The position numbers were made by a program, and so were the translations under genes. Under the pieces are notes generated by a model. It was not told the origin of the DNA, made no database searches, and saw only the letters and a list, made by a program, of their open reading frames with translations. DNA of 61,836 nt, taken from positions 1 through 61,836 of the forward strand of contig SICQ01000001.1 in the NCBI GenBank assembly GCA_009691385.1. Direction: 5' to 3'. Within the stretch, counting starts at the first letter, position 1; each line of letters opens with the position of its first letter. Below are positions 6,662 to 28,459 of this stretch, one piece after another. The DNA comes from Candidatus Ryanbacteria bacterium (lineage in GTDB: Bacteria > Patescibacteriota > Minisyncoccia > Ryanbacterales > GWA2-47-10b).

Positions 6662-6684
6662 TTTTAATATTCTTTACAGTTTTT

Positions 6685-8343
6685 ATGTTTGATTTTTTAA
6701 AAACGATAGGGGATTTAACTACGGTAAATCTCCCGTTATGGCATAAAATCACGATTATTGTGGTAAATGCCCTTACACTCGCTTTAGTTGCAACCGTACT
6801 TAATCATAATTCAATAAAGAAACGCATCACCCAGCTATTTCTTGGTTTGGGGGTTTTCATGTTTCTTTGGGTTGATTTTGCTTACTTCGCAAGACTTGTG
6901 GGATCTTCCAATACGGAAGTTTCTCTACTCTTCTTAAGGATCGCGTGGACTGCTACTCCGCTCTTTTTCTGCTTCGTATATTTAACAACCATATATATTG
7001 TTGAGCGCAAACAACGTGATGTTTTTGTATACGGGGTCATCTCTCTTGCCTTTACTCTTGCTTTGGTGACTTGGTTCACAAATTATATTGTTGCCGGCGT
7101 AAGCTTCGTTGGTATCAATCTAGATATCGATTATGGAAAAGGTTTCTTTGGATTTTTATTTGGAATTTTAATAATTATGTGTGCAACACTTTTTCCATTA
7201 GTCCAGGGTGGAAAAAATGTTCGATTGAAACGGAACACATCCATATTTCTTGGAGGAGTAAGCATTTTTTATGTCAACAATCTTATATTTAATATTACCC
7301 TACCGGCTGTTTTTAATATTACGCATCTTTATTTTTTTGGTGATTACTCACTTCTTATCGTTATAGCAGTTACTGCCTATCTGATTTTACAGAAAGGATT
7401 TTTGGATATAAGGGTATTTTCCGCGGAATTATTTGTTTTTGCCTTGTGGGCCTTTATTTTATTAAGAATGACAATCGCGACCAACAACCAAGAGCGCCTT
7501 ATCAGTCTTGGGATGCTTGGCGCTGCAATTACGATAGGATTATTTCTGCTTAGGAGCATAGATAAAGAAGTTGAGTTGCGGAAAAAAATAGAATTACTCG
7601 CTGCTGATCTTGAAGTCGCCAATGCTGATCTCAAACGGCTTGATGAGGCCAAGTCTGACTTTATCTCAATCGCATCACATCAGCTGCGCACGCCACTCTC
7701 GATCATCAAGGGATATATCTCCATGATGCGCGAGGGCACCTACGGTAAACTTGAGACAAAGATTCATGATCCTTTGGAAAAAGTGTATGTATCAAACGAA
7801 CGCTTGATCACCTTGGTCAATGATTTGCTCGACCTCTCACGCATGGAGCGTGGACGCATGCAGTTTGATATGAAGCCCGTGCATCTATTAGAGATTCTTG
7901 ACCCCATCGTCACTGATTTTCAGATCGTGGCAAAAAATAAAAAGATGGAACTTGTGTGGGAAAAAGATTTTAAGACCGATGCGATGAGCGGTGATGTAAA
8001 CAAACTCCGCCAAGTAGCCCTCAACCTTGTAGATAATGCATTTAAATATACACCGTCGGGAAAGGTGGTAGTGAAGCTCGCACAAGAAGGCGATGCTATC
8101 AGATTTTCGGTCACTGACACAGGGCCGGGTTTGAGTGAGGAAGAATCGCGCAAGCTTTTCAAAAAATTTGTCCGCGGCAAAGAACAAAAGGCGACTCATA
8201 CCGAAGGCCTTGGCCTCGGGCTCTATGTAGCCAAACTCATCGCTGAAGCCCATGGTGGCTCCATCGGCGCCACCTCACCAGGCAAAGGCAAAGGCAGTAC
8301 TTTCTTTATGCTGCTACCGCTTGAAGCAGAGAAAAAGAAATAA
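6685..8343 (+). CDS. sensor histidine kinase with a multi-pass membrane N-terminal domain
   Basis: About 7-8 N-terminal TM helices, then a coiled coil. H-box SDFISIASHQLRTPLS, N-box LVDNAFKYT, G-boxes DTGPGL and GLGLGLYV. Confidence 0.9.
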   Translation: MFDFLKTIGDLTTVNLPLWHKITIIVVNALTLALVATVLNHNSIKKRITQLFLGLGVFMFLWVDFAYFARLVGSSNTEVSLLFLRIAWTATPLFFCFVYLTTIYIVERKQRDVFVYGVISLAFTLALVTWFTNYIVAGVSFVGINLDIDYGKGFFGFLFGILIIMCATLFPLVQGGKNVRLKRNTSIFLGGVSIFYVNNLIFNITLPAVFNITHLYFFGDYSLLIVIAVTAYLILQKGFLDIRVFSAELFVFALWAFILLRMTIATNNQERLISLGMLGAAITIGLFLLRSIDKEVELRKKIELLAADLEVANADLKRLDEAKSDFISIASHQLRTPLSIIKGYISMMREGTYGKLETKIHDPLEKVYVSNERLITLVNDLLDLSRMERGRMQFDMKPVHLLEILDPIVTDFQIVAKNKKMELVWEKDFKTDAMSGDVNKLRQVALNLVDNAFKYTPSGKVVVKLAQEGDAIRFSVTDTGPGLSEEESRKLFKKFVRGKEQKATHTEGLGLGLYVAKLIAEAHGGSIGATSPGKGKGSTFFMLLPLEAEKKK

Positions 8344-8524: not shown

Positions 8525-11500
8525 ATGAGTACACGATTGTTCATGAGATGGGGTTTGGTCGGTATCGTTGCTGCAGCCATGTTGGCGCCGCAACTTGCAT
8601 TGGCGGGTACCCCACGCCTTCAACTTAATAAATATAATTTTAACACTGGCGAAAGTGTCACACTTACGGTTACGGGCGCGGACGCAAATGCTGATGTGAT
8701 TGTGGTCTCATCAGACGCATCGGGTAGTTATTCAAACCCAGAGATGACGCTTGATCGTACTGATGCGAGTGGCCGATGGACATCTCCCGGGTATCCGATC
8801 ACACGAGATTTTCGTTCGAGCTGTGATTATGAAACATATGTCATGGTTAATGGCAAACAAAGTAACAAAGAAAGTTACTGCGTCACGCGCACGACAGAAA
8901 ATCCATCAGGCGTTCATGGGTATGTCGTAGAGACACAAAACTCATTTCAATATATTGAAACAACAGTCGAGATTGATGGAACCAAACGCGTATCTACATC
9001 GGGTGGATTTTATGAAACGCGCGACCTCGAACCAGGACGACACACCATCACCGTACAAACTCCACACTTCACTACGGAGCAAAGAGCTACTAACCCCGAA
9101 TATAATATATGTAGCGGAGGCGCCGACTGTGGTAGAAATTCTGGTGGATGGAGTAGCGGTGATACCGCAAGCTTCAATGTGACTGAAGGAAATATTGCGA
9201 CCGTATATTTTCGATTTCTTGTCACTAATCACAATGGAATTCCCACGCCTCCCGGCGGCACTGAACCTGAACCATGCAATGCGACCCATGGCTCATGTTC
9301 GGCAGGTCAGATAAATACTTATCGTTGTAGAAACGCAGTCAACTATCAGAAGTGTGAAAGAAAAGATGCTAACAATGATGGTTTTGCTATCTACTGTTGG
9401 AATGCACCAAATCAATGTCCTGCAAATGCGTCTATCTGCACTGGCAGTGCGGGTAATAGTATCACTGATGACCCGAACAACCCCCACGACATCCCTGTGT
9501 GCACTAACGCTCTCCAAGGCCCCACACCATCTACTATCTATTCAGTGGGTGGACAAGTTGAGGTGACAGAAAATGGTGTCAATGTACGCAGTGCGCCAGC
9601 GGGCGGTATAGCGGGTACTCGCAACGCGGGAGCTCAAGGTACTATTGCTGCAAGTCCTGCAATCCCCGCAAGGCTTGACGGCGTGTGGCATCAATGGTGG
9701 AAAGTAAACTTTAGCAATTTAACAGGTTGGGTGACAGAAGGATTTTTGCGACCTGCAGGTAGTAGCGCTGGCAACTATGTAGACGCCGGTAATAATGTTT
9801 CGGGCACTTTCCCAAGTGGCGCCAGCAAGCTCTACAGCTATCTCAATGCGTCAGTGTATGTAAATGGTGCAAAGCGTGATGACATCCAAAACAATGGCTT
9901 TGTCATGTGGAGGGTAACTTCCAAAGATGGTGCTGCGTGTGGTGCTGACAATTGTGGCGTAGTCTTTGAACCAATACCAAACGGTAACCAAGCTCAAGAC
10001 CCAACCGCGGTATTTTCTAGCAAAGGAAGCTACCAGCTTCAGTTTTGCGCACCATTTATATTGCCGTGTGACACGATCACCGCTGACATTCGCCAAGGAG
10101 GTACTATCGACTGTGATCAGGACGTACAACAGAGGTATCTTGCTAGATGGTGTCCACCCGGCTTTAATCCTACTAGGGTATCATGGGGTACCAGCGGAGC
10201 TTTCCCTAGCAACCCATCGGGTCCCTATCACGCGTGCAATATCCGCAACCTTCCCGTTGGTGGTATCAACGCTGGCGGATGCAGTGGTAAATACAGTTGG
10301 CCCAATGGCGGTGATGATACTACAGCACGCACACCATCAACGCCTACCTTTAATGATGGAGCTGATGCATACGGCTATGCTCACATTGTAGCTGAGGCAT
10401 GGAATTCAAACTGGACACGCGCACTCAATCTCAATGGCATCCCGACACGATCAGGCCAATGGAATATTGCGGCGCGCTATATGGCACACGGTGTTAGGCA
10501 AGACGGCCCATATAAATGGCTGGGTATCCCCCCCGCGTATGCTGATTTTTTCCCAGAATCACACGCGAGTACCTATGTATCACCCGAAGCATTAGCATCA
10601 GGCCCCGGTCAGCTCCCGCTCTGCATGCAAGACTATAGTGTAAACGCTCAAGTATATGGTTATGCAAAAGGTTGGTGGGGTTTGCCGAGTGGTATGAACC
10701 CTGATGGCGCGCGTCCTGGTCGTCGTATACCACAAACTGGTAAATGCGTACCTGACTGGAGACATTGGCGAGCCAACATCAATCCAATCCCTCAATACAC
10801 CGGAGGCCCCGGCCCAAGCGCTGTAAGTGGTAATTGTGGAGGTCCTACCAGTACTGCTGATGAAGTAGTATGTGGATCCGCAGAAGATCAGTTTTACTGC
10901 ACCGCAAATAAAACAAGAGCCGCTATCGGCGAGGCAGTCACCTTTACTGCGTTTGGCGCAACACCACTCGAGTGGAACGCAAATATCGGTGCAACACCAC
11001 GCCAACAATCTGCCGGGCAATCGTTTACCACTACATGGAATTCAGTAAGCGGTTCAATGAACCAAACTGTGAGCTTTACGCATCGTACTGATGGTAGCGT
11101 CCAATCCGAAAGCTGTAGCGTATTGCTCTATGATCCAAATCCAGCGCCTCCTCCACCGCCACCAGCGCCCGTAGGTCCTCTGAATTGTTCGGGCGGTGAC
11201 GCGTCAGCAGGTACTGTGGCGGGCACGGTAACTCTCCGCGCGTTTGATGTGACCGGCGGTAGCTCAATGTCATTTGGTGTCTACCCCGTACGCAATGGTG
11301 TCCGTCAATACGAGCTTGCCAAGTGGCCGGGTGGCGTGCGTGTAGGTGCTTCAAATACTTTCCGCGGCACGCTAACAGCAGCACAACTCTCCGATGGAAA
11401 CTTTGGCAATGGCCGCTACGGTGTCAATATTTGGCTCTGGGGTAGGCCTGACGATGCGACTGATGACAGACGGTGTGCTACATATGATTTTGTAAAATCA

Positions 11501-12877
11501 GGCGATACTATTACGATTCCTACGCCGGACTTGCCCCCACCTCCTCCGCCAGCCGTAACACCTCCACCACCTCCTGTCGCGCCACCCCCACCAGCAGGGC
11601 CGTTGCCACCACCGTCATGTACTTTGACGCCGACTCCTGGTGGTACCTCAAAAGCAATCAACACTAGATTTGGCGTGACATGGGCCGCTACCAATGCTGA
11701 TTATATTTCAGTCGCAGGCCCCGGTTGGAGTGGCACAATTGATTGCGGACTTCATGATGACAACGGCGATGGTATAGGTGACCGGTTTGATCCAGTGTAT
11801 GCTACTCCGTATTCATGTCGCGCGGCATTCTTGCGTACTGCAAGCGGTGGTGGATATGATCTTGGTACGCAGGGCACGTGGGGCAACCTCTACATGCGTG
11901 AAGCAGGTAGCGCCAATGTAACTGCAACACCAAAACGCTATGACGGCGCTAGTGGCGCACCATGTGCGCTTACTATCACCACATCAGGAGGCGGCCCAAC
12001 CCCTCCACCTCCGCCTCCGCCGCCGGCTCCCACAGCACCTCGCTGTCGCCTCAATGGAACCCTTGGCAATTCGTCTGTTACAAAAACCGTAGGTGATCGA
12101 TTTGAAGTCCCTTGGGCATGGGAAAACGCTGATTATATCACCGTCTCAACTCCATGGGCTGGAACGGTTGATTGTGGCAAACGTGCTGATGGCACCTTTG
12201 ATCCAAATTACTTCCCGTACCCGTACAAGTGTTTTAGAGATTTCATGTCCTCTCCAACTCCGTACGATCTTCGTTCAACGGGGCAGTGGGGCAATCTCTA
12301 TATGCGTGAAGCGGGTACCGCGCGCGTAACCATCACACCAAAGCGCAATGACGGGACTACGGGCGCATCATGTACTCTCACCATTACTGGCACTGGTACT
12401 CTCGTAGCGCCACCCCCACCACCCGTAGCGCCTCCGCCGCCTCCAGCGGCAGCGCAAGCACCAACATATTATAACCATGAATGTTCGGTCACTAGCGTCA
12501 CACAGCTCGGTGGTGGTCGCGTCAAATTACGCGTCGTAGGCGGTACGGCATTGCCTGATTCTGTTGGTTTCTGGAATCTCTCACGGGGCGTCGGCACTGC
12601 TACATGGGTTGGTCGTGGAGTATGGACCACTATCAACTCAACTACCTATGATGTGACATTGAGTGCGGTAGATCACGCGAACACCTACGGCAGATATCAG
12701 GCAAGTTTCTGGAAGTGGGGTACAAGTGATGCGACAAATATCCTGTGCTCGGAAGCACAGTTTGATATCCCACGCCCTACTGCTGCTACAAGCGGTAGCG
12801 ATGTGAGCGCTCTTGCGGATACTCTGCAAGGCCTTCGCAGCATGCTATTGGGCTTACAGTCAGCTCTCGGGCAATAA
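8525..12877 (+). CDS. giant secreted modular protein (1450 aa) rich in Cys, Trp and Pro, with an SH3b-like domain and poly-proline linkers
   Basis: Signal peptide ...VAAAMLAPQLALAG. SH3b-like segment VNVRSAPAGG...WWKVNF..LTGWVTEGFL (about 9539-9752). Four poly-Pro linkers and duplicated modules. No membrane anchor or sortase motif seen at the C-terminus. Confidence 0.85.
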   Translation: MSTRLFMRWGLVGIVAAAMLAPQLALAGTPRLQLNKYNFNTGESVTLTVTGADANADVIVVSSDASGSYSNPEMTLDRTDASGRWTSPGYPITRDFRSSCDYETYVMVNGKQSNKESYCVTRTTENPSGVHGYVVETQNSFQYIETTVEIDGTKRVSTSGGFYETRDLEPGRHTITVQTPHFTTEQRATNPEYNICSGGADCGRNSGGWSSGDTASFNVTEGNIATVYFRFLVTNHNGIPTPPGGTEPEPCNATHGSCSAGQINTYRCRNAVNYQKCERKDANNDGFAIYCWNAPNQCPANASICTGSAGNSITDDPNNPHDIPVCTNALQGPTPSTIYSVGGQVEVTENGVNVRSAPAGGIAGTRNAGAQGTIAASPAIPARLDGVWHQWWKVNFSNLTGWVTEGFLRPAGSSAGNYVDAGNNVSGTFPSGASKLYSYLNASVYVNGAKRDDIQNNGFVMWRVTSKDGAACGADNCGVVFEPIPNGNQAQDPTAVFSSKGSYQLQFCAPFILPCDTITADIRQGGTIDCDQDVQQRYLARWCPPGFNPTRVSWGTSGAFPSNPSGPYHACNIRNLPVGGINAGGCSGKYSWPNGGDDTTARTPSTPTFNDGADAYGYAHIVAEAWNSNWTRALNLNGIPTRSGQWNIAARYMAHGVRQDGPYKWLGIPPAYADFFPESHASTYVSPEALASGPGQLPLCMQDYSVNAQVYGYAKGWWGLPSGMNPDGARPGRRIPQTGKCVPDWRHWRANINPIPQYTGGPGPSAVSGNCGGPTSTADEVVCGSAEDQFYCTANKTRAAIGEAVTFTAFGATPLEWNANIGATPRQQSAGQSFTTTWNSVSGSMNQTVSFTHRTDGSVQSESCSVLLYDPNPAPPPPPPAPVGPLNCSGGDASAGTVAGTVTLRAFDVTGGSSMSFGVYPVRNGVRQYELAKWPGGVRVGASNTFRGTLTAAQLSDGNFGNGRYGVNIWLWGRPDDATDDRRCATYDFVKSGDTITIPTPDLPPPPPPAVTPPPPPVAPPPPAGPLPPPSCTLTPTPGGTSKAINTRFGVTWAATNADYISVAGPGWSGTIDCGLHDDNGDGIGDRFDPVYATPYSCRAAFLRTASGGGYDLGTQGTWGNLYMREAGSANVTATPKRYDGASGAPCALTITTSGGGPTPPPPPPPPAPTAPRCRLNGTLGNSSVTKTVGDRFEVPWAWENADYITVSTPWAGTVDCGKRADGTFDPNYFPYPYKCFRDFMSSPTPYDLRSTGQWGNLYMREAGTARVTITPKRNDGTTGASCTLTITGTGTLVAPPPPPVAPPPPPAAAQAPTYYNHECSVTSVTQLGGGRVKLRVVGGTALPDSVGFWNLSRGVGTATWVGRGVWTTINSTTYDVTLSAVDHANTYGRYQASFWKWGTSDATNILCSEAQFDIPRPTAATSGSDVSALADTLQGLRSMLLGLQSALGQ
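11180..11518 (+). repeat. module B, copy 1 (in-frame protein repeat)
   Basis: LNCSGG...NGRYGVNIWLWGRPDDATDDRRCATYDF shares the GRY..W.WG..DAT...C...FD core with copy 2. Bounded by poly-Pro linkers 11138-11179 and 11519-11614. Confidence 0.6.
11615..11995 (+). repeat. module A, copy 1 (in-frame protein repeat)
   Basis: SCTLTPTPGG...NADYISV...DCG...WGNLYMREAGSANVTATPKRYDGASGAPCALTIT aligns along its length with copy 2. Confidence 0.8.
12041..12409 (+). repeat. module A, copy 2 (in-frame protein repeat)
   Basis: RCRLNGTLGN...NADYITV...DCG...WGNLYMREAGTARVTITPKRNDGTTGASCTLTIT. Bounded by poly-Pro linkers 11996-12040 and 12410-12445. Confidence 0.8.
12467..12772 (+). repeat. module B, copy 2 (in-frame protein repeat)
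   Basis: YYNHECSV...YGRYQASFWKWGTSDATNILCSEAQFDIP is distantly related to copy 1. Confidence 0.6.
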
Positions 12878-15127: not shown

Positions 15128-15641
15128 CTTACCCCAATCACTCGAAGCACTCTTGTTTGTATCAGGCGAGCCGCTCGCACTCAAAGATTTGGCGCGCCTT
15201 TCTGGTGCGGATAAGCGTGAGGTTGCAAAAGCATTAAACACACTTAAAGACCAACTTACCCTGCATGGCATACGGCTTTTGCAGAGTGAAGATACCTATA
15301 CGCTCGTGACCGCACCCGAGACGAGCGAAGTGTCAGCTCGTATCGCCAAAGAACGACTTGAAGGCGACCTGACGCGCTCACAGTTAGAAGCACTTGCGAT
15401 TATTTTATGGAAAGGCCGCGTATCACGCTCGAGCATTGATTATGTCCGTGGGGTCAATTCGGCATTTGCGCTCCGCGCGCTTTTGATCCGCGGGCTTATC
15501 GAACGCTCACAAGATGAGCATGACGCGCGCGTATTTTTGTATCGCCCCACACTCGATCTTTTTAAATATCTCGGTATCACCTCGAGCGCGGAGCTGCCAA
15601 GCTACGACGATATAGCAAAAGACCTTAAAGACCATGGGTGA
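15105..15641 (+). CDS. scpB: segregation and condensation protein B
   Basis: LEALLFVSGEPLALKDLARL followed by a winged-helix pair. It overlaps the scpA end. ATG at 15105 (a TTG at 15099 is also in frame). Confidence 0.85.
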   Translation: MDELNNNNLPQSLEALLFVSGEPLALKDLARLSGADKREVAKALNTLKDQLTLHGIRLLQSEDTYTLVTAPETSEVSARIAKERLEGDLTRSQLEALAIILWKGRVSRSSIDYVRGVNSAFALRALLIRGLIERSQDEHDARVFLYRPTLDLFKYLGITSSAELPSYDDIAKDLKDHG

Positions 15642-16539
15642 TTTTACGGGAGCTGTCACCGTTGTCGCGAGTTTTTTGGCTGTTTTCGGTATCATCATAC
15701 CGGCGCTTGCACCTCCCGCAGAACACCTCGTGCCACTACCTCCGCCAGCGCACATCGTGCTCGACAGTACCTATACCGCGCAAAGCATGTTGGTAGCTGA
15801 TCTGGGTGGCGCGTGGCGCACCGCAGAGCGAGAGCCCTTTGCGCGCCGTCCTATCGCAAGTATTTCCAAAGTCATGACTGGTCTTTTAGCACTCGAAGTC
15901 CTACCACTCAATACGCCCATCATCCTTTCGAAAGAAGCAATCAAGACGCAGGGTGAGGTGGGTGATTTTCAAGAAGGTGAAGTATTTGCTCTGCGCGACG
16001 CGCTGTACGCGCTCATGATGCCGTCATCAAATGACATGGCGATGGCAATAGCAGAAACAGTAGGCGAGCGTCTTGGCGGAGACACCTTTGATGAAAAGAT
16101 AGAGCGCTTTGTAGTGCTCATGAATAAAAAAGCTGACACGCTTGGCATGCATAATACGGCGTATCGCAATCCTACAGGTCTTGATCTTGATGATGGTAAG
16201 CCAAGTAATTTTTCTTCAGCAAATGATTTACTCAAACTTATCCAGTTTTCGATGAAAACGCCGCTTTTGTGGGAACCATCGCGCGAAGGTGGCAAGATTA
16301 TCACTTCGTTTGGGCAAGTACGCCACGAAATAATCAATAGCAACGCACTCACCCCCTATATCGTAAACTTTGTAGGCAGCAAGACGGGTACTACCGAAAG
16401 AGCGGGGGAATCTATCATCATCATATATGAAACAATACTCGGGAGGCCGCAAGCTCTCATTATGCTTAGCGCCGAACCAGGACAGCGAATCATCGAGGCG
16501 TCATCCCTCCTCCTCAAGACTGGAGGTATGCTACCATAG
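15634..16539 (+). CDS. D-alanyl-D-alanine carboxypeptidase (S11, PBP5-like)
   Basis: SxxK (SISK), SxN (SSN) and KTG (KTGTT) motifs. N-terminal membrane helix. 8-nt overlap with scpB. Confidence 0.85.
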   Translation: MGDFTGAVTVVASFLAVFGIIIPALAPPAEHLVPLPPPAHIVLDSTYTAQSMLVADLGGAWRTAEREPFARRPIASISKVMTGLLALEVLPLNTPIILSKEAIKTQGEVGDFQEGEVFALRDALYALMMPSSNDMAMAIAETVGERLGGDTFDEKIERFVVLMNKKADTLGMHNTAYRNPTGLDLDDGKPSNFSSANDLLKLIQFSMKTPLLWEPSREGGKIITSFGQVRHEIINSNALTPYIVNFVGSKTGTTERAGESIIIIYETILGRPQALIMLSAEPGQRIIEASSLLLKTGGMLP

Positions 16540-16544
16540 AGGGT

Positions 16545-17615
16545 ATGCAGGAGGCAGTATTGCTTGATGTATTAAAGGTTTTCGGTCTCTCGACCCTTTC
16601 TTTTTTCGTGGCTTTTTTGGCGACGCCTCTTTTGACGCATTATCTGTATGCGTACAAGATGTGGCGGCCCCATACTTCGCGCAAAGCAACTACGGGCGAG
16701 CATGCATCTGTCATCTCGGGCATCATGCGCGAGCGCACACGCGTGGAGACACCGCGTATGGGTGGGATTTTAATCTGGGGTACTACGGTTTTTATCGCAC
16801 TCTGCTTGTGGGCATTTAGTCACCTGTACGACAACACGCTTTTTGCAAAACTAACATTTCTCTCACGCAATCAGACTTGGCTACCATTTGCCGCCTTGGT
16901 CGCAGGATCTCTCATAGGCCTCCTCGATGACTGGATGGCAGTGCGCGGCCGTGATACCTATGTCGGCGGCGGACTTGATCTAAAAGCTCGGGTTGGCGCG
17001 GTCATCGTCATCGGTGCGGTTGGCGCGTGGTGGTTTTATAGTCAGCTTGAGATGCGCGGCATTCATATACCATTTTGGGGCGATCTAACACTTGGTATTT
17101 TCTTTATACCGTTTTTTATTTTCACCATGCTTGCGGTATTTGCGGGCGGCGTGATTGACGGACTTGATGGTTTGGCAGGCGGAGTGTTTGCATCGATTCT
17201 TGCCGCGTATGGTGGTATTGCATTTTTTCAGCACCAGCTTGATCTTGCTACATTTCTCGGAGTCACTATCGGCGCGCTGCTGGCATTTTTGTGGTACAAC
17301 ATTCCACCCGCGCGTTTTTATATGGGTGAGACTGGTATGCTCGGACTTACCTCAATGCTGACAGTCATCGCGTTTCTCACGGGCGCGGTAGCGGTCTTGC
17401 CTATCATCGCATTCCCGCTGGTGGCGGAGGTAGCATCTGATATCATACAAATCGCATCAAAGCATTTTCGTGGCAAAAAAGTCTTTTTAGCAGCTCCCAT
17501 TCATCATCACTTTGAAGCGTTGGGCTGGCCACACTACAAGGTAACTATGCGATTTTGGATTGTCGGCGTTGTTTGTGCGATTATGGGTATGGTGATCCAT
17601 CTCATCGGAAAATAA
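16545..17615 (+). CDS. mraY: phospho-N-acetylmuramoyl-pentapeptide transferase
   Basis: LDDWMAV, DGLDGLAGG and APIHHHFE motifs. 10-TM profile. Confidence 0.95.
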   Translation: MQEAVLLDVLKVFGLSTLSFFVAFLATPLLTHYLYAYKMWRPHTSRKATTGEHASVISGIMRERTRVETPRMGGILIWGTTVFIALCLWAFSHLYDNTLFAKLTFLSRNQTWLPFAALVAGSLIGLLDDWMAVRGRDTYVGGGLDLKARVGAVIVIGAVGAWWFYSQLEMRGIHIPFWGDLTLGIFFIPFFIFTMLAVFAGGVIDGLDGLAGGVFASILAAYGGIAFFQHQLDLATFLGVTIGALLAFLWYNIPPARFYMGETGMLGLTSMLTVIAFLTGAVAVLPIIAFPLVAEVASDIIQIASKHFRGKKVFLAAPIHHHFEALGWPHYKVTMRFWIVGVVCAIMGMVIHLIGK

Positions 17616-17616
17616 T

Positions 17617-19194
17617 ATGGCAGCATATTCATACATCATCAAAGGTGGCACTATCATCGACGGTTCGGGGTTTCCTATGTACCGTGGCGATGTTGGTATT
17701 TCGGGCGAAATAATCAAAGAGATTGGATCGGTAGGCAGAGGGCGGGCGACGCGCGTCATTGACGCGGCTGGCAAATACATCGTACCCGGATTTATCGATG
17801 TCACTAATCATTCGGATACTCACTGGACGCTCTTTACCTATCCAGCTCAAGAAAACTTGCTTGCGCAAGGTATCACGACGATTATCGGCGGCGTGTGCGG
17901 ATCGTCACTCGCACCTCTCGTCGATCAGAAAGCTATAAGCTCCGTACAAAAATGGACCGACGCATCAAACTTTAATATCAATTGGCGTAGTATGGAAGAA
18001 TTTTATGGCGAGCTTGATAGACATCCCATGGGAGTCAATGTGGGTAGTATGGTAGGGTACTCAACATTGCGTCATAATATCACCGATGATGACGCGCGCG
18101 AGCTCACCCACCAAGAACTTGAATCAATGAAGATGCTTCTCAAACGATCACTTGATGAAGGCGCCTTTGGACTTTCGATAGGATTGGCGCACATACCAAA
18201 TACACTTGCGATCCAAGAAGAAATCGTCGAGCTTACACGCATTGTAGCCAACGAAGGCAAGGTGATCAGCGTCCATATGCGTAACGAAGGTCGCCGACTG
18301 CTTTCATCGGTGGCAGAGGTTATCAATATCGCACGGTCTTCAGGCGCGCAGGTACATATTGCACACTTTAAGGCTATTGGCAGAAAAGCGTGGCAAGATT
18401 TTCCCAAGGCGCTCACTATCATCCGTAAGGCACGCAAATATGAAAATTTGCCCATATCGGCTGATTTTTTCCCCTATCTACGCACAGGGTCATTACTTTC
18501 AAACCTTCTCCCCGAATGGATTATGGAAGGGGATCGCGCAAAGATTTTGGCCACTCTCTCTGATCCTCATGGGCGCGAGACGATACTCGAAGCTATCCGC
18601 AGTATTACGCTTCACTATGATAATATCGTGATCGCGGAAGCGCAAAAAGATAAAAAAATTATTGGCAAAACAATCACCCAGATCGCCACGCAATCAGGAC
18701 TATCGCCCGAAGAAACGCTCTTGCAGATACTAGTGGTCAATGGTTTGAGTATCACTATTTTTTCAAAAACACTCAAAAGCAGACATCTCGTCACTATCGC
18801 CAAAGAACCCTACAGCATGTTTGCATCTGACGGCGTGGGTGACCCGAAAGGGCGAAAAGACCTGACGCATCCGCGCTCATACGGCGCGGCACCTCGCTAC
18901 ATTGATCGCCTCGTACGCAAATCAAAAGTGTTTTCGTGGGAAGAAGCTATCAAGCGCATGACAGCGATACCGGCGGCACATCTTGGGATCGCGGGTGATC
19001 GCGGATCGCTCAAAAAAGGCGCTTTGGCAGATATTGTGATTATCGACCCTGACGGCATTCACGATACCGCCACCTATAGCGCACCTTATCAATATCCAAA
19101 AGGAATCGAATATGTCTTTATCAACGGACGGCTTGCAATCGAAAAAGGAGCACCTACGGGAGCGCTTGCAGGCAAGATTCTTCGTCGCGGGTAA
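17617..19194 (+). CDS. N-acyl-D-amino-acid deacylase family amidohydrolase (D-aminoacylase-like)
   Basis: IIKGGTIIDGSG...DVGISGEIIKEIG...PGFIDVTNHSD...GITTIIGGVCGSSLAP follows the D-aminoacylase N-terminal pattern, including the GxCG cysteine. It starts 1 nt after the mraY stop. Confidence 0.8.
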   Translation: MAAYSYIIKGGTIIDGSGFPMYRGDVGISGEIIKEIGSVGRGRATRVIDAAGKYIVPGFIDVTNHSDTHWTLFTYPAQENLLAQGITTIIGGVCGSSLAPLVDQKAISSVQKWTDASNFNINWRSMEEFYGELDRHPMGVNVGSMVGYSTLRHNITDDDARELTHQELESMKMLLKRSLDEGAFGLSIGLAHIPNTLAIQEEIVELTRIVANEGKVISVHMRNEGRRLLSSVAEVINIARSSGAQVHIAHFKAIGRKAWQDFPKALTIIRKARKYENLPISADFFPYLRTGSLLSNLLPEWIMEGDRAKILATLSDPHGRETILEAIRSITLHYDNIVIAEAQKDKKIIGKTITQIATQSGLSPEETLLQILVVNGLSITIFSKTLKSRHLVTIAKEPYSMFASDGVGDPKGRKDLTHPRSYGAAPRYIDRLVRKSKVFSWEEAIKRMTAIPAAHLGIAGDRGSLKKGALADIVIIDPDGIHDTATYSAPYQYPKGIEYVFINGRLAIEKGAPTGALAGKILRRG

Positions 19195-20470
19195 ACGCGA
19201 CCCTGAAATACTGATCTTAGGACTCGGTACACTTGGCGGAGGTGTTGGTGTCGCGCGCTTTTTAGCGGACCTTGGGTATCGTCTGACTATTACTGACCTT
19301 CGCTCAAAAAAAGAACTCGCCACTTCACTCGCACAACTCAAACGATATACGCATATCCGTTATACGCTCGGCAAGCATGACCTCCGCGATATCCAAAGGG
19401 CTGATCTGGTAGTCAAAAACCCCGCGGTTCCGCTTGAATCTTCATTTGTCCGCGCGGCAAAAAAGAAAAAGATACCTGTAACCTGCGATGCCGATATTTT
19501 TCTGACGCTCGTACCGCGTGGGCGCATTATCGGCGTCACGGGTACCAAAGGAAAGACCACGACGACACTTCTCATACAACACCTTCTCGGTAAAAAAGCA
19601 GCAGCGGTAGGAGTGCCGGGCGTATCATTTTTTGATGTATTTACAACGCGCACACTACCAGAGTTTGTGGTAGCAGAATTTTCAAGCTTTGATCTTGATT
19701 TGGTCTCGCACAGCCCGCCCGTAGTAGTCATCACATCTCTTTTCGCTGATCACCTCAATCGTTATTCATCATTTGCCGCGTACGCAAAAGCAAAGATGAA
19801 TATCGTAGCCAAGCATACACAAAAAGATCGGGCGTTTGTATGGTACAGCCCTGAACTTATACATGCATTTCCCAAATCATATCGTGGCAATCGCATGTGG
19901 GTAAGCGAGCGCCAATTGCCACCGTATGCAAGTAAAGCATCGTGGCGCGTCGCACGGCCCGCAATCGCGCTCGCAGTCGCCATTGCGCGTACATTGGGAA
20001 TATCCGAACGAGATATTAAAAAGCGCCTCTTGTCATTTGAGGCGCCTACAGGTCGCCTTGAGATAATACGCAAGACACGCACTACGGTTTTTATTGATGA
20101 CACGACCGCGACCAATCCGGGAGGCGCTGCGTTTTCACTCGCTGCTGTCGCGCGTGAATGGAAATCGATCACTATCATCGCGGGCGGTGAAGATAAAAAA
20201 TTTCCTGACAAAGATGTGCGCGTATACGCTGACGCTATCAAAAAATATCATCCGCGCGTGATACTCTTGCCGGGATCGTTGAGCATTAAGCTCAAAAAAT
20301 ATATCGGTACTGTAGAGTACACAAAAACTATGGCGGAGGCGGTGCGCTTGGCGCAGCGTAGTAAAGGCGCAGTAGTACTCTTACCGGGGGCGGCGAGCTT
20401 TAATATGTTTCGCAACGAATATGACAGGAGCGCACAGTTTGTGCGCGCCGTAAAACGCCTACGCCGATGA
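19112..20470 (+). CDS. murD: UDP-N-acetylmuramoylalanine--D-glutamate ligase
   Basis: ILILGLGTLGGGVGVARFL Rossmann N-terminus and GVTGTKGKTTT P-loop. The start is uncertain: the ATG at 19112 overlaps the upstream gene by 83 nt, and the TTG at 19166 is an alternative. Confidence 0.9.
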   Translation: MSLSTDGLQSKKEHLRERLQARFFVAGKRDPEILILGLGTLGGGVGVARFLADLGYRLTITDLRSKKELATSLAQLKRYTHIRYTLGKHDLRDIQRADLVVKNPAVPLESSFVRAAKKKKIPVTCDADIFLTLVPRGRIIGVTGTKGKTTTTLLIQHLLGKKAAAVGVPGVSFFDVFTTRTLPEFVVAEFSSFDLDLVSHSPPVVVITSLFADHLNRYSSFAAYAKAKMNIVAKHTQKDRAFVWYSPELIHAFPKSYRGNRMWVSERQLPPYASKASWRVARPAIALAVAIARTLGISERDIKKRLLSFEAPTGRLEIIRKTRTTVFIDDTTATNPGGAAFSLAAVAREWKSITIIAGGEDKKFPDKDVRVYADAIKKYHPRVILLPGSLSIKLKKYIGTVEYTKTMAEAVRLAQRSKGAVVLLPGAASFNMFRNEYDRSAQFVRAVKRLRR

Positions 20471-21561
20471 CCAAACATGCTGATAAAATATTGCTGGGTG
20501 TGATCGCGTTTTTACTGATAGTAGGCATGATCACTTTTGCGTCAGCATCAGCGCCACGATCAGTACGCAACTATGGCAATTCGTATTCGCAGTTTTTACG
20601 CCAACTTGTTCAAGGACTTGGGCTCGGAGGTCTTTTTTTTATGTTGGGTCTACGCGCGCCTGTTGTAATCTGGAAAAAATGGGCGCCCCTCATGCTCATA
20701 GGAAGTTTACTCATCATGCTTGCTATGCTCACGATACCGAGTATCAGCTTGACGGTAGGTGGCGCAACCCGTTGGATTGTTCTTTTTGGTGTTTCATTTC
20801 AGCCGTCCGAACTACTCAAGTTTGCATTTATCGCGTATCTCGCGGCATGGATTCATTCGCGCAAACGCGAAATCGGCAGTTTTACTTTTGGTCTCCTGCC
20901 GTTTCTTGCCATCACGGGTATCATAGGAGCTTTTTTACTTTTAGAACCTGACCTTGGTACCTTCGGTGTTATCGCGTGTACATCGCTCGGTATGTTTGTC
21001 ATGGGAGGTGGGCATATGAAGCAAGTGGGTATTATCATTTTGCTTGGCTTACTGTTTTTGATAGGTATGAGTATTTTGGAACCATATCGTATAAATCGCT
21101 GGCTCGTATTTCTCGATCCAAATACCGATCCGCAGGGCATCGGCTATCAGATCAACCAAGCGCGTCTTGCGATAGGCTCGGGCGGGCTGTGGGGTAGGGG
21201 AGTTGGCCTTTCGCGACAAAAGTTTTATCTACCGGAACCTGATGGTGACGCGGTCTTTGCAGTGTTCGCCGAAGAGTACGGATTTATAGGGGTCATCATA
21301 CTCATCGGCGCCTTTTTTCTCTTCGCCGTTCGTGGTATGATGGCGGCAGCACATACGCGCGATTCCTTTACCCAGCTTCTAGCTTCTGGCATTACGCTCC
21401 TAGTTGTGACGCAAGCAATCATCAATACCGCGGCGCTCTCGGGACTCTTGCCGCTGACCGGCATTCCCTTGCCATTTATGAGTTTGGGTGGCACGGCGGT
21501 AGCATTTCTCCTTTTTGAAATGGGTGTGCTCGTACAAATCTCAAAACGCAAACATATATGA
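20467..21561 (+). CDS. ftsW: SEDS-family peptidoglycan glycosyltransferase (FtsW/RodA)
   Basis: About 10-TM SEDS profile (PSELLKF, PEPDGDAVFAVFAEEYGFIG, LPFMSLGGTA). It sits in the murD-ftsW-murG position. ATGA overlaps on both sides. Confidence 0.85.
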   Translation: MTKHADKILLGVIAFLLIVGMITFASASAPRSVRNYGNSYSQFLRQLVQGLGLGGLFFMLGLRAPVVIWKKWAPLMLIGSLLIMLAMLTIPSISLTVGGATRWIVLFGVSFQPSELLKFAFIAYLAAWIHSRKREIGSFTFGLLPFLAITGIIGAFLLLEPDLGTFGVIACTSLGMFVMGGGHMKQVGIIILLGLLFLIGMSILEPYRINRWLVFLDPNTDPQGIGYQINQARLAIGSGGLWGRGVGLSRQKFYLPEPDGDAVFAVFAEEYGFIGVIILIGAFFLFAVRGMMAAAHTRDSFTQLLASGITLLVVTQAIINTAALSGLLPLTGIPLPFMSLGGTAVAFLLFEMGVLVQISKRKHI

Positions 21562-22682
21562 AAATAGTACTCTTGGGCGGAGGTACCGGTGGACATTTTT
21601 ATCCTCTCATGGCTGTCGCCCGTTCACTCCGCGACATCGCAGAAGAAGAACGGATCGTATCACTTGACCTCGTGCTCATGGGTGACAAACCCTTTGACCC
21701 TGAGGTGATGCGTGAAGAATCAGTCTCATTTGAGATGATACCCGCGGGGAAGATGCGCCGTTATTTTTCACTGCTCAATTTTTCTGACAGCATCAAAACC
21801 TTGCGTGGCGTTTTTCGCGCGCTTTGGAAGTTCACCACTCATCCGCCTGATATTATTTTTTCAAAAGGTGGCTATGATGCGTTCCCGGTACTCGTTGCCG
21901 CGCGCCTCTATCGTATACCCGTCATGATTCACGAGTCAGACGCGATACCGGGCGCGGTCAATACTTGGGCTGCCAAATTCGCCCGCCGCATTGGTGTATC
22001 ATTTCCAGAGGCAGCAAAACATTTCCCGCCTGATAAAGTGGCGCTCTTGGGCAACCCTATACGCCCCGGCATTTTGGGTGGCTCGTCAGACGAAGCGTAT
22101 GATATTTTCAATCTAGAGACGGGCGTGCCTATCGTGCTTATCTTGGGTGGATCACAGGGTGCACAAAAGATAAATGATCTTATACTTTCAACGCTTTCCG
22201 AGATGGTAGAAAAGTTTCAGATTATCCATTCAACGGGTGTGGCAAACCACGACATGGTCGCCAAAGAAGCCGAAGTAGCGCTGGGTGATTCACCCCACAA
22301 ATCGCGCTATCATCATTTCCCCCTCATGACTGCGAGCCAGTTACGCAACGCCGCGTTTGTATCCAATGTAGCGGTATCGCGCGCGGGCGCGGGTGGAATC
22401 TTTGAGCTTGCTGCGTGGCATTTGCCGGCGATTCTCGTACCCATCACTGATTCCGCGCAAAATCATCAGCGCGAAAACGCCTACAACTACGCGCGCACGG
22501 GAGCTGCTATCGTTGTAGAAGAATCAAACCTCACGCCTCATGTTCTGATATCAGAAATACAAAAAATCATCACTGATACAGCGCGCGCCGCAGAGATGCG
22601 TCAGGCGGCAGGCACCTTTGCTCGTATTGATGCGTCACGCAAGATTGCCCACGAGCTTATTCGCCTCGGTGTCCATGAATAA
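21558..22682 (+). CDS. murG: undecaprenyldiphospho-muramoylpentapeptide beta-N-acetylglucosaminyltransferase
   Basis: GGGTGGHFYP glycine loop and HQRENA near the C-terminus. dcw context. Confidence 0.9.
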   Translation: MKIVLLGGGTGGHFYPLMAVARSLRDIAEEERIVSLDLVLMGDKPFDPEVMREESVSFEMIPAGKMRRYFSLLNFSDSIKTLRGVFRALWKFTTHPPDIIFSKGGYDAFPVLVAARLYRIPVMIHESDAIPGAVNTWAAKFARRIGVSFPEAAKHFPPDKVALLGNPIRPGILGGSSDEAYDIFNLETGVPIVLILGGSQGAQKINDLILSTLSEMVEKFQIIHSTGVANHDMVAKEAEVALGDSPHKSRYHHFPLMTASQLRNAAFVSNVAVSRAGAGGIFELAAWHLPAILVPITDSAQNHQRENAYNYARTGAAIVVEESNLTPHVLISEIQKIITDTARAAEMRQAAGTFARIDASRKIAHELIRLGVHE

Positions 22683-25953: not shown

Positions 25954-26520
25954 ATGGCATTTAAAGTTAAGGTAACTTTTATAGATGTATTTAAAATTGG
26001 AGATAATATAAATTATAATCTCCAAATTTTAAAAGTTCTTTATTCTGGATATAAAGACTTGCCAGATGGTCATAAATTAATTAAGCCTATAGTAATAATT
26101 AATACTTCGATAGTCGAAGCTTTATTTTTTGATTTTGTTGTTAATAGGCTAAAAAGGCCTTATCGAACGGAAGTTTTATTTTCTGAAATCTTTGCGGCAC
26201 TTAAAGACAAGAATCTACATAGGTTTGAGAACTACATCAGTCAAGTAGAAAAGCGTGATCTATTTGAGCTAGGTAACACAAATTTTTATGAAATATTACG
26301 CATTTTGAGTAAAAAAAGAAATAGGATACATATACAAAATGAAAAATGGGAAGAACCTCGCGATGAGTCAGATGTGTTTGATAAAGAATCAAAGATTATG
26401 TCTGAAAAAATTCTAGAAAAGACAGTGTATATTCTAGTATCTAAATTTTCAAGGCGGGAAGAGTATCATAGATATGTAAATGATTTTGAATTCCCTTGGG
26501 ATCGGCATTTTAAAGAGTAG
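25954..26520 (+). CDS. hypothetical helical protein, HEPN-like (tentative)
   Basis: 188-aa ORF in a strongly AT-rich patch (the line 26041-26100 is 27% GC). Predicted all-helical. YEILRILSKKRNRIHIQN carries R-N-x-x-H at a helix start, one residue shorter than the canonical HEPN Rx4-6H. Confidence 0.55.
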   Translation: MAFKVKVTFIDVFKIGDNINYNLQILKVLYSGYKDLPDGHKLIKPIVIINTSIVEALFFDFVVNRLKRPYRTEVLFSEIFAALKDKNLHRFENYISQVEKRDLFELGNTNFYEILRILSKKRNRIHIQNEKWEEPRDESDVFDKESKIMSEKILEKTVYILVSKFSRREEYHRYVNDFEFPWDRHFKE

Positions 26521-26524
26521 ATAT

Positions 26525-26560
26525 GAGGTCGCAAAAGCTATGTTGTACGACCTCTTTATA
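26525..26560 (+). terminator. possible terminator hairpin
   Basis: 7-bp stem GAGGTCG/CGACCTC with a large 16-nt loop, followed by TTTATA. Confidence 0.4.
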
Positions 26561-26634
26561 CTCGCAAAAATCACTACCCCGCCGCATCTAAGGATTGATA
26601 TTGGTAAATAAAAAACTTACTTCTATATTATAAA

Positions 26635-27270
26635 ATGCTACGATGGATGGGTATGGAGTTAAAATGGACTACAGAAGCTATAAGAGAAGGATTTGAAAAA
26701 TTTTTCAATGAATACGGACGTTATCCAACCACACCGGAGATTGATCGTTATCAATATCTCCCCTCTTCAAAACAGCTACAAAGAAGGTTTGGGAGTGTCT
26801 CTGTAATTAGAGAGCAGTTAGGATTACCTATTTTAGATTTTACTAAAGGCTCTACTAGATCAAAAACAGCAAAAGATATAGGGAGACGTGGAATATATGA
26901 AGAACAAATGATCTATAAAAAACTCGTAGATCATTTTGGAGAAGTTTTTGTACATAACCAAAAACCCTTCAACAACTATGCGGGTAGATATGATTTCTAT
27001 GTCTACTCAAGAAATAGTAATTTTGCTATAGACGTATTCTACGCAGCAAATTTGAGAAACCTTAGTGGATGCATTAATCTTAAGCAGAAAGTTTATAAAG
27101 ATACCGAGGATAAAATAATCCTATTAAGCACAAATCCTGAGATAAAACAGCATGATATTGATTATGTCTTATATAAGAAAGATAAGACCCTTCCCACTAA
27201 TTTAGTAGTTTATAGTTTGGAAAGTTTTCTAGCCTATATAAAAAGCTCAGAAGTATTACGCATAAAATAA
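26635..27270 (+). CDS. homing-endonuclease-associated repeat fused to a restriction-endonuclease-like (Vsr/DUF559-like) domain
   Basis: The N-terminus WTTEAIREGFEKFFNEYGRYPTTPEIDRYQYLPSSKQLQRRFGSVSVIREQLGL fits the HNH-associated repeat pattern (WT.E...GR.P...FGS...GL). The C-terminus YEEQ...GRYDFYVYSRNSNFAIDVFYA resembles a PD-(D/E)xK-type core. AT-rich. Confidence 0.6.
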   Translation: MLRWMGMELKWTTEAIREGFEKFFNEYGRYPTTPEIDRYQYLPSSKQLQRRFGSVSVIREQLGLPILDFTKGSTRSKTAKDIGRRGIYEEQMIYKKLVDHFGEVFVHNQKPFNNYAGRYDFYVYSRNSNFAIDVFYAANLRNLSGCINLKQKVYKDTEDKIILLSTNPEIKQHDIDYVLYKKDKTLPTNLVVYSLESFLAYIKSSEVLRIK

Positions 27271-27286
27271 TTTCAACACTACTATA

Positions 27287-28459
27287 ATGAGAGTTTCATT
27301 TTCAGCGCTTGAAACATATAATCAGTGCCCGCAGAAATACGAGTACGAGCATATCGAACGCAAACGCGTACCAAAAGGCAAAGAGTCTATTTTTGGTACT
27401 TCTATCCATAGCGCTATGCGCTTTATGTTTTCTCGGGATCCCCTCTTTCCTACACTTGAAGAGGTGTTGGCGCATTTTCGTGAATCATTTGCTGATAGCC
27501 AATCAGTTGCTGATGCTGACAAGGCGCGGTACTTGGAATCTGGCGAGCGCATGATACGGGTATACTATGAAAAAAACCCGCCGTGGAACTTTGATGTGAT
27601 TGATCTGGAATCGCGCTTTGAAGTACCACTCGAAGATCCGAAGACGGGTATCACCCACACCATCGCTGGCAGCATTGATCGCATTGATAAAACCGGTGAA
27701 GGTTTATTTGAAATCATTGATTATAAGACTTCACGCAAACTTCCCGCTCAAGAAACAGTCGATGCCAATATGCAGTTGGCTATCTATCAGCTCGCACTCG
27801 AGAAAAAATGGCCACATATCGATCCTGAACATGTGACCTTAGCACTTTACTTTATGAAAGCGGGCGAAAAACTTGTCACCCGCCGCACGCGCCAAGACCT
27901 TGATAACACACGCGGGCAAATTCTCGATACTATTCATTCGATAGAAAAACGCATCGAGACAAAAGAATTCCCTGCCAAACCAAACGCTCTATGTGACTGG
28001 TGCGGGTACAAGCCCATATGCCCTGCGTGGCGGCATTTGTATAAAGCACAAGAAAAAGACGCCCCACCCGATGATGCCCGGCCGCTGATCAAAGAATACT
28101 TTACCCTCAAACACGAGATCGGCGAGCGTGAAGATAGACTTGACCAGATCACAGCCAGTATTAACGCCTATCTCGATGCGCAAAAACTTGATCGTGTATT
28201 TGGTGAGGGTGGATCACTCGCACGATCACAGCAAGAGCGCACAAGCTGGGATGCAAGCAAGATAACCTCGATACTTGAACCAACAGATTTCTGGCAACAG
28301 ATACTCTCCCCTGATGACAAAAAACTAAAAAAGCTTTTACCAAAATTGCCTACCGACCTTCAAGAACGCTTGCTAGCAGAGGCTCGCATCGTCAAACGCT
28401 TTACCATGCTCAAAGCATCTACCAAAAACGCATTGCCCGAAGAAGAACATGAAGCTTAA
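27287..28459 (+). CDS. PD-(D/E)XK nuclease, Cas4/AddB-type with a four-Cys cluster, plus a ~130-aa C-terminal extension
   Basis: The first Cys is in ALETYNQCPQKYEY. The catalytic core is GSIDRIDKTGEGLFEIIDYKTS. The C-terminal CDWCGYKPIC triad completes the arrangement typical of Fe-S RecB-family or Cas4 nucleases. Confidence 0.8.
   Translation: MRVSFSALETYNQCPQKYEYEHIERKRVPKGKESIFGTSIHSAMRFMFSRDPLFPTLEEVLAHFRESFADSQSVADADKARYLESGERMIRVYYEKNPPWNFDVIDLESRFEVPLEDPKTGITHTIAGSIDRIDKTGEGLFEIIDYKTSRKLPAQETVDANMQLAIYQLALEKKWPHIDPEHVTLALYFMKAGEKLVTRRTRQDLDNTRGQILDTIHSIEKRIETKEFPAKPNALCDWCGYKPICPAWRHLYKAQEKDAPPDDARPLIKEYFTLKHEIGEREDRLDQITASINAYLDAQKLDRVFGEGGSLARSQQERTSWDASKITSILEPTDFWQQILSPDDKKLKKLLPKLPTDLQERLLAEARIVKRFTMLKASTKNALPEEEHEA

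Follow-up and report, generated by a model that had tools for sequence, protein, structure and literature searches.

The window analysed here, a whole stretch of 61,836 nucleotides (nt) at positions 1 to 61,836 of contig SICQ01000001.1 (assembly GCA_009691385.1, Candidatus Ryanbacteria bacterium), carries part of the division and cell wall (dcw) cluster, which is among the most conserved gene arrangements of bacteria. An open reading frame (ORF) of 525 amino acids (aa), referred to as gene X (protein P0001), was found between mraY and murD of this cluster. A first-pass annotation, made from the sequence alone, had assigned its product to the deacylases acting on N-acyl-D-amino acids and suggested that it releases a D-amino acid, for example D-glutamate (D-Glu), which the neighbouring MurD ligates, or trims scavenged muropeptide fragments. 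In most Parcubacteria gene X is fixed, as a single copy, in the peptidoglycan (dcw) operon. The genes at the locus are as follows.

15634-16539, forward strand: S11 D-Ala-D-Ala carboxypeptidase homologue (PF00768), upstream of mraY.
16545-17615, forward strand: mraY (TIGR00445, 1e-41; PF00953).
17617-19194, forward strand: gene X, ORF of 525 aa, D-aminoacylase-family amidohydrolase, no stop inside the frame.
19112-20470, forward strand: murD (TIGR01087, 266 bits against a cut-off of 212); start at ATG 19112 or TTG 19166.
19112-19194, forward strand: overlap of the gene X 3' end with the murD 5' end, 83 nt from the ATG, or 29 nt if TTG 19166 is the start.
20467-21561, forward strand: ftsW, SEDS protein (PF01098).
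21558-22682, forward strand: murG (PF04101, PF03033; synteny).

The stop codon of mraY (TAA, 17613-17615) was separated from the ATG of gene X at 17617 by the single base 17616. These boundaries and the 83-nt overlap with murD were as the first-pass annotation had described them. Besides ATG 19112, the only in-frame murD starts before the GxGxxG motif were TTG 19133 and TTG 19166; no start lies between TTG 19166 and GxGxxG, and the overlap therefore comprises at least 29 nt. The sequence AAGGA (19100-19104) is located 7 nt upstream of ATG 19112, and AAGGAG (19145-19150) is located 15 nt upstream of TTG 19166. The same overlap layout recurred in all three relatives examined from the same family or order (loci L036, L037 and L038), where candidate murD starts lie near -71 to -89 and -29 to -35. 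Given this overlap, gene X and murD are likely to be translationally coupled in this lineage. The order mraY-X-murD-ftsW-murG was also conserved in the three relatives, which indicates that the mraY-X-murD arrangement is not an assembly artefact, and in a locus of the same genus (L035) mraY-X was followed directly by murD (G005:C7:129737-130987). As a side observation, the GxGxxG motif of murD begins just 25 nt past the gene X stop, and in this order the murD start necessarily lies within gene X. The N-terminal extension of MurD, KKE.L.ERL..RF, seems conserved in the window and the three relatives, but constraint on the C-terminus of gene X, which it overlaps, may account for this.

The distribution of gene X was determined in a class sample of 201 genomes (Paceibacteria/Parcubacteria) and a phylum sample of 301 genomes. 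In addition, 100 gene X loci were collected with 6-kb flanks, the ORFs in the flanks were clustered, and the identities of the clusters were verified by Pfam. A single-copy orthologue was present in 141 of the 201 class genomes, from about 50 families, and in 46 genomes of the phylum sample, 41 of them outside the class sample. The carriers include Ryan-, Giovannoni-, Taga-, Niyogi-, Sung-, Terry- and Campbellbacteria (Parcubacteria/Paceibacteria). The dominant gene order in the 100 loci was scpA-scpB-dac(S11)-mraY-X-[murD]-ftsW-murG-gltX-M23. MraY directly preceded gene X in 55 of 99 loci and the S11 dac gene occupied position -2 in 36 of 94; FtsW directly followed gene X in 49 loci, and MurD did so in 28. 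Gene X directly adjoined a peptidoglycan or division gene in 87 of the 100 loci and had one no more than three genes away in 95, the neighbours including MraY, MurD, FtsW, MurG, MurI, MreB, MreC and a penicillin-binding protein (PBP). The most constant downstream partner was FtsW, within three genes in 76 of 100 loci. An alternative order was frr-rseP-aaRS-mreB-mreC-x-X-ftsW-murG, in which the first three genes were recognised by Pfam matches to the ribosome recycling factor (RRF), M50 and class-II tRNA-synthetase families. Where murI (glutamate racemase) was in the operon (7 of 100 loci), the order was always mraY-murI-X-murD. Genomes lacking gene X showed plain mraY-murD or mraY-murI-murD adjacency, which indicates that gene X is a lineage-specific insertion exactly at this junction.

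In some lineages small unannotated ORFs were wedged beside gene X, separating it either from murD or from mreC (L133 and L134, cluster c59; L068 and L104, c36; L108, L112 and L114, c25); the representative ORF of c36 had no Pfam match. Full-text literature searches returned no paper that links D-aminoacylases (or K06015, COG3653) to the candidate phyla radiation (CPR) or Patescibacteria, and none that discusses glutamate racemase in these bacteria. In the literature found, gene X is a previously undescribed member of the dcw operon of Parcubacteria.

The gene X protein matched Pfam Amidohydro_3 (PF07969) with 72.9 bits, above the gathering score of 29.7. Its best sequence match in the PDB was the D-aminoacylase 1m7j (2e-64), followed by KleDacyl 9g5m (9e-60), N-acyl-D-Glu deacylase 3gip (3e-57) and the carbohydrate deacetylase OngB (6e-45). 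Matches to hydantoinases and dihydroorotases were no better than 1e-10 and covered the N-terminal region only. An AlphaFold2 model built on 110 homologues had a mean predicted local distance difference test score (pLDDT) of 91.8, and displayed a three-domain architecture composed of a beta-sandwich, a TIM barrel and an inserted alpha/beta lid. The nine top PDB matches of the model in Foldseek were all D-acylases or OngB (E 1e-45 to 1e-48), with template modelling (TM) scores of 0.81-0.85; the next class, comprising hydantoinase, allantoinase and dihydroorotase, reached 0.50-0.57 (about 0.55). Both sequence (1m7j, 3gip) and predicted fold thus upheld the D-aminoacylase assignment of the first-pass annotation, and clustering with dihydroorotase- or hydantoinase-type enzymes, which it had named as grounds for doubt, was not found. 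No signal peptide and no membrane segment were detected in the gene X protein; its N-terminus forms the beta-sandwich. To judge from sequence and model, the gene X family branched from the D-aminoacylases (amidohydrolase subtype V; EC 3.5.1.81-83) and is specific to Patescibacteria.

Residues were mapped from alignments to 1m7j, 3gip and 9g5m, residue roles were taken from PMC12149444, and conservation was counted in an alignment of 101 gene X homologues. The features of the active site and the lid are as follows.

17785-17817, forward strand: motif PGFIDVTNHSD, residues 57-67 (alignment to 1m7j).
17896-17898, forward strand: Cys94, metal-bridging Cys of GGVCGSS, kept in 88/101.
18274-18276, forward strand: His220, beta-site metal ligand, kept in 96/101.
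18364-18366, forward strand: His250, beta-site metal ligand in the motif H-x-K252, kept in 99/101.
18499-18597, forward strand: insertion in the mobile alpha/beta lid that is specific to the family, about 33 residues (295-327), unmatched in the HMMER alignments to 9g5m, 3gip and 1m7j.
18829-18831, forward strand: Asp405, strand-8 catalytic Asp (Asp366 of 1m7j), kept in 72/101.

The two motifs quoted in the first-pass annotation, PGFIDVTNHSD and GGVCGSS with C94, were found at these positions. Thr63 replaces the first His of the alpha metal site (His67 of 1m7j), whereas His65 corresponds to His69 of 1m7j and is retained in 88 of the homologues. Alignment to 1m7j thus bore out the reported loss of the first HxH histidine (T-N-H) and the retention of the Cys, the two His and the Asp in the window protein. 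Position 63 was never His in the 101 sequences (T 51, L 20, N 17). According to Lai 2004, as far as it is quoted in PMC12149444, D-aminoacylase is activated by the metal of the beta site and inhibited by that of the alpha site; a protein that has lost the first His could therefore still be active. Since that His is never present, the weak, inhibitory alpha site has been dismantled across the whole family.

The residues predicted to hold the ligand were conserved. Arg420, the counterpart of the carboxylate-binding Arg373 of KleDacyl, is present in the window protein and kept in 98 of 101 homologues; Lys252, which forms a polar network with Glu224, is kept in 95; and Lys252, Tyr287, Arg420, Glu224, His418 and Trp301 are each retained in at least 95. 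The lid insertion holds the LLPxW301 and R320 motifs, in which W301 is found in 97, P299 in all 101 and R/K320 in 88 homologues. From these alignments the enlarged lid domain, longer by about 33 residues, is predicted to shape the substrate pocket, of which the acyl side (position 192) varies across the family.

The supply of D-Glu in this organism was assessed with hidden Markov model (HMM) searches of its assembly (634 kb, 46 contigs, 85% complete). These detected no MurI, no class-IV (D-amino-acid) aminotransferase and no racemase or epimerase of the mandelate racemase/muconate lactonizing enzyme (MR/MLE) type; alanine racemase (Alr) was present. Neither murI nor the class-IV aminotransferase was found in two relatives, one a genome of the same genus (100% complete) and the other of the same family. 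The first-pass annotation had called for a search for murI and a D-amino-acid transaminase, and both are thus missing from this genome and the two relatives, the outcome that it had said would support a salvage role. In alignment to MurD structures, the local MurD carries an Asp within the DH motif (slfaDHlnry) and a Lys within GGEDK, the canonical D-Glu signature; the L-Glu-ligating MurD2 has Glu197 and Arg358 at these positions (PMC8788868). As the known routes are absent and MurD is of the D-Glu type, the organism requires D-Glu, and no known means of producing it is apparent. Coupled racemase routes, in which a racemase of N-succinyl-amino acids or an L-Ala-D/L-Glu epimerase would act together with a deacylase, were also considered and rejected: MR/MLE-type proteins occurred in about 3 of 201 genomes, and this genome was not one of them. 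The remaining MR/MLE matches were weak and lay in open frames of about 400 aa, which we take to be enolase itself.

Because the essential beta-site and catalytic residues all remain in the window protein and murD overlaps the 3' end of gene X, the reading we favour, with a probability of about 0.4, is that the protein would be a cytoplasmic one-metal amidohydrolase whose target is a peptidoglycan building block with a peptidyl- or N-acyl-D-Glu-type end. The protein would bind the free-carboxylate D-amino-acid end of such a building block bearing a large acyl group. The substrate would most likely be a peptidyl- or N-acyl-D-glutamate, for example L-Ala-D-Glu or a fragment of a muropeptide or precursor. 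Cleavage of the amide before the D-residue would release D-Glu for the D-Glu-specific MurD encoded just downstream, and in a genome without MurI and Dat, the D-amino-acid aminotransferase, gene X could in this way deliver D-Glu to MurD. Stated more broadly, the protein would be a peptidoglycan-linked derivative of the D-aminoacylases that binds a D-amino-acid terminus and in this organism probably hydrolyses it. A wider proposal, that Parcubacteria may use gene X as a scavenging step which feeds host-derived muropeptide or peptidyl-D-Glu into the Mur pathway, and that in lineages without MurC and MurD (MurE, MurF, MraY, MurG and FtsW being kept) it may form part of a UDP-MurNAc-peptide (uridine diphosphate N-acetylmuramoyl-peptide) route bypassing the first two ligases, is a long shot.

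A number of observations weigh against the favoured reading, some of them in the protein itself. In KleDacyl, Tyr188 at the n-site and Tyr279 and Arg373 at the c-site contact the substrate (PMC12149444). Tyr188 is replaced by His192 in the window protein, at a position that is variable across the clade, and Tyr279 by Phe285 (F in 54 and Y in 36 members of the clade). In the N-acyl-D-glutamate deacylase Bb3285, the lid-domain Arg295 that specifies D-Glu pairs with the side-chain carboxylate. Its counterpart in the gene X protein is ambiguous because the lid insertion makes the alignment unreliable: Arg295 aligns to W301 with HMMER, or to S329/R328 by the register of the following IVI strand, and no secure equivalent was obtained. 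Position 328 is K or R in 66 of 101 homologues. The closest NCBIfam model, NF006560/PRK09061, was matched with 169.9 bits, below its cut-off of 340, which makes the gene X protein a family outlier.

Erosion of the active site is a further difficulty. All five of His65, Cys94, His220, His250 and Asp405 are retained in 62 of the 101 homologues, whereas 39 lack at least one, Asp405 being replaced by N (14), A (6), S (4) or G (2). Two homologues lack nearly all five and still occupy the mraY-X-ftsW slot. On a FastTree phylogeny the state changes between intact and eroded at least 13 times, and that of Asp405 at least 11 times. No link was found between erosion and the status of MurD, MurI or Dat. 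Among the 39 eroded homologues, Lys252, Tyr287, Arg420, Glu224, His418 and Trp301 are each kept in 32-37, and Asp67 is also conserved. Active D-acylases without the bridging Cys exist (PMC12149444), so Cys-to-Gly variants need not be inactive. What is conserved across the family is the pocket for the ligand and the place in the operon rather than the residues of catalysis, which suggests that the common role would be recognition of such a ligand in cell-wall precursor synthesis. We infer that hydrolysis is dispensable in about a third of the lineages.

The remaining difficulties came from controls across the class, in which MurD, MurI, Dat and Alr were called by HMM searches of draft genomes and the presence/absence sets for Fisher tests were transcribed by hand from tables. 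MurI was found in 47, a Dat-like protein in 49 and Alr in 71 of the 201 genomes; 71 had none of the three. Gene X showed no complementarity with MurI, which was present in 33 of 141 genomes with gene X and 14 of 60 without it (odds ratio (OR) 1.0, p=1). Nor was an association found with MurI or Dat taken together (p=0.17), with Alr (p=0.75), or with MurD, on which gene X shows no dependence (OR 0.84, p=0.84). LdcA gave no sign of complementarity either, as 19 of 26 LdcA-positive genomes carry gene X against 70% overall. Gene X occurred in 62% of the genomes without a D-amino-acid source and in 75% of the remainder. MurD was present together with none of MurI, Dat and gene X in 31 genomes, so D-Glu can be obtained in another way. 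The 7 loci with gene X directly between murI and murD also count against salvage; in several families gene X directly adjoins murI, and it is retained in 27 of 37 genomes without a recognisable MurD. Three MurD-less genomes were checked, namely G018 (a single contig, 100% complete, with gene X), G014 (with gene X) and G185 (without), and the sole Mur ligases found in them were MurE and MurF. When specificity-determining positions were sought between genomes with and without MurD, the best column, 289 (R/K), had p=0.03 uncorrected and vanished under phylogenetically independent contrasts.

The absence of murI is therefore uninformative in this class: 154 of 201 genomes lack it whether or not gene X is present, and the step in the first-pass annotation from a missing murI to a salvage role does not hold. 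The lack of phyletic complementarity, the location of gene X beside murI and its presence in MurD-less genomes indicate that the supply of D-Glu to MurD is not the function that explains conservation of the family. D-Glu salvage is possible in this particular genome, where murI and the class-IV aminotransferase are missing and MurD is of the D-Glu type; that part of the original idea stands, and the class-wide presence of gene X independently of MurI, Dat and MurD speaks against the rest. The first-pass annotation would have given its idea up on finding a murI gene with an insertion not conserved in relatives, or phylogenetic clustering with other amidohydrolase types; what was found was no murI, a conserved insertion and no such clustering.

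Some further observations concern the same pathway. MraY, MurG, FtsW and PBP are retained in G018 (L145, L158), G014 (L142, L155) and G185 (L139, L160) despite the absence of MurD. About 75% of the sampled Paceibacteria lack murI, and nearly all of the 71 genomes without Alr, MurI and class-IV aminotransferase retain peptidoglycan genes; such loss of D-amino-acid sources implies uptake or an unrecognised source. The MurE and MurF proteins of this genome and its relatives match only about 70-471 and 117-418 of the NCBIfam models (murF, window 42624-43277, reverse strand; murE, C28:16118-16744 of the genome; L146, L152), and their N-terminal UDP-binding domains appear to be absent or very divergent. 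In G149:C3:25137-26687 a MurI match and an N-terminal MurD match lie in one open frame of 700 aa, an apparent MurI-MurD fusion. A candidate MurI-X fusion in G103 (open frame of 757 aa) was rejected, as the two HMM matches were in different frames.

The same evidence was weighed for other explanations of gene X. The protein may be a non-hydrolytic accessory, its scaffold binding UDP-MurNAc-peptides or lipid I/II at their D-Glu or D-Ala carboxylate end and serving as a chaperone, channel or regulator of the MraY, MurD, MurG or FtsW steps, with the surviving catalysis vestigial. This is the main rival to the favoured reading, and somewhat unlikely. The at least 13 independent losses of catalytic residues, with the ORF kept at full length in the same operon slot, speak for such a role, as do pocket residues that are conserved in the eroded members too. 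The most constant neighbours being ftsW-murG (76 of 100 loci) and not murD, the independence from MurD, MurI and Dat, and the retention of gene X in genomes without MurC and MurD are all in its favour. Against this, the Cys/His/His/Asp set and His65 are intact in 62 of 101 homologues, among them the window protein, and such long persistence of an unused site is not expected. The conservation of His220 and His250 (96-99%) points to a retained metal, the Cys-less active D-acylases (PMC12149444) show that some erosion may spare activity, and no partner-binding surface or fusion was found. It is distinctly improbable that the protein is a hydrolase on another D-terminus, which would remove the C-terminal D-Ala from tetra- or pentapeptide stems, scavenged or recycled, as a cytoplasmic analogue of the LD-/DD-carboxypeptidases of the LdcA kind, or would edit mis-built precursors. 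The chemistry would suit this, peptidyl-D-Ala being an N-acyl-D-amino acid with a free carboxylate and thus of the kind cleaved in the established D-acylase reaction (PMC12149444). Gene X lies in a peptidoglycan operon and persists where MurC and MurD are lost and MurE and MurF kept, and a side chain that is small or neutral would be compatible with the conserved Trp301 and with an r-site region that varies and is mostly non-basic. No anticorrelation with LdcA/S66 or Alr was seen, however, the positional link is to murI and murD and not to murF or ddl, and catalytic erosion argues against this reading as well.

Very improbable is a general N-acyl-D-amino-acid or other amidohydrolase that hitch-hikes in a highly expressed operon with no specific role in the cell wall. 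The family name and the fold alone imply no such role, and 5 of 100 loci have no peptidoglycan gene within three genes. The association with peptidoglycan genes nevertheless survives rearrangements (mraY-X, mreBC-X-ftsW, murI-X-murD) in 95 of 100 loci and about 50 families, and gene X is single-copy and retained in genomes of 0.5-1 Mb that are stripped of most metabolism. Hardly credible, finally, is an analogue of MurL, in which MurD would ligate L-Glu and the gene X protein would convert the product to the D-form. Like the organisms with MurD2 and MurL (PMC8788868), this one has neither murI nor Dat, and gene X adjoins murD. But MurD here has the Asp/Lys of the D-Glu type and not the Glu/Arg of MurD2, MurL is ATP-dependent and has no known conserved domain while gene X encodes a plain amidohydrolase without a nucleotide-binding motif, and gene X co-occurs with and adjoins murI in several genomes. 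The MurL/MurD2 analogy was rejected on the absence of a known domain in MurL and the D-Glu signature of MurD.

Two features of the window lie outside the pathway. An ORF of 1450 aa (8525-12877, forward strand) is located upstream of the AsnS/AspS-scpAB block. The GC content falls to 0.36 at 6001-8000 and 26001-28000 and is about 0.49 elsewhere.

An extra single-copy gene at the mraY/murD/ftsW junction in most of a large uncultivated class suggests that the synthesis of cell-wall precursors involves an added step or accessory factor. The gene also draws attention to the supply of D-amino acids in the class: about three quarters of its genomes lack murI and 71 of 201 have no source that can be recognised, but MurD or later peptidoglycan genes are retained in nearly all. 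The gene X protein, which is easy to express, offers an experimental handle on how ultra-small episymbionts acquire or handle D-glutamate and stem peptides, and its family offers, within the amidohydrolase superfamily, a natural series of transitions from enzyme to pseudoenzyme.

Among known systems, LdcA (S66 LD-carboxypeptidase) and other muropeptide-recycling hydrolases resemble the proposed activity in that stem peptides are trimmed in the cytoplasm at a D-residue, but LdcA has an unrelated fold and shows no phyletic complementarity with gene X. In Xanthomonas, MurD2/MurL (PMC8788868) bring D-Glu into the stem peptide without MurI, from a gene next to murD; MurL, the epimerase that partners MurD2, is ATP-dependent with no known conserved domain (PMC8788868), unlike the amidohydrolase encoded by gene X beside a MurD of the D-Glu type. 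OngB (9KB1/9KB3) belongs to the same family, gave the best TM scores (0.84-0.85) and demonstrates that the scaffold can accept sugar-acid amides; its sequence match is weaker (6e-45), and it acts in chitin catabolism, of which no genes were found near gene X. Bb3285 of Bordetella bronchiseptica (3GIP/3GIQ; EC 3.5.1.82) is close in sequence (3e-57) and fold (TM 0.83), and its product, D-Glu, is the substrate of the MurD that neighbours gene X, although its Arg295 has no secure equivalent (W301 or S329/R328). The characterised D-aminoacylases as a group are found in catabolic contexts, whereas gene X is located in the dcw operon of Patescibacteria. Gene X also differs from them in the clade-wide absence of the first HxH His, in having His192 for the n-site Tyr and Phe285 for the c-site Tyr, in a lid longer by about 33 residues, and in the loss of the catalytic Asp, Cys or His in 39% of the clade. 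With these enzymes it shares the three-domain fold (Foldseek E about 1e-46 to 1e-48; TM 0.81-0.83 by query and 0.89-0.92 by target; about 28% identity), and the residues common to both are the bridging Cys, both beta-site His, the Asp of strand 8, the Arg of HPR and, in the polar network, the Lys and the Glu.

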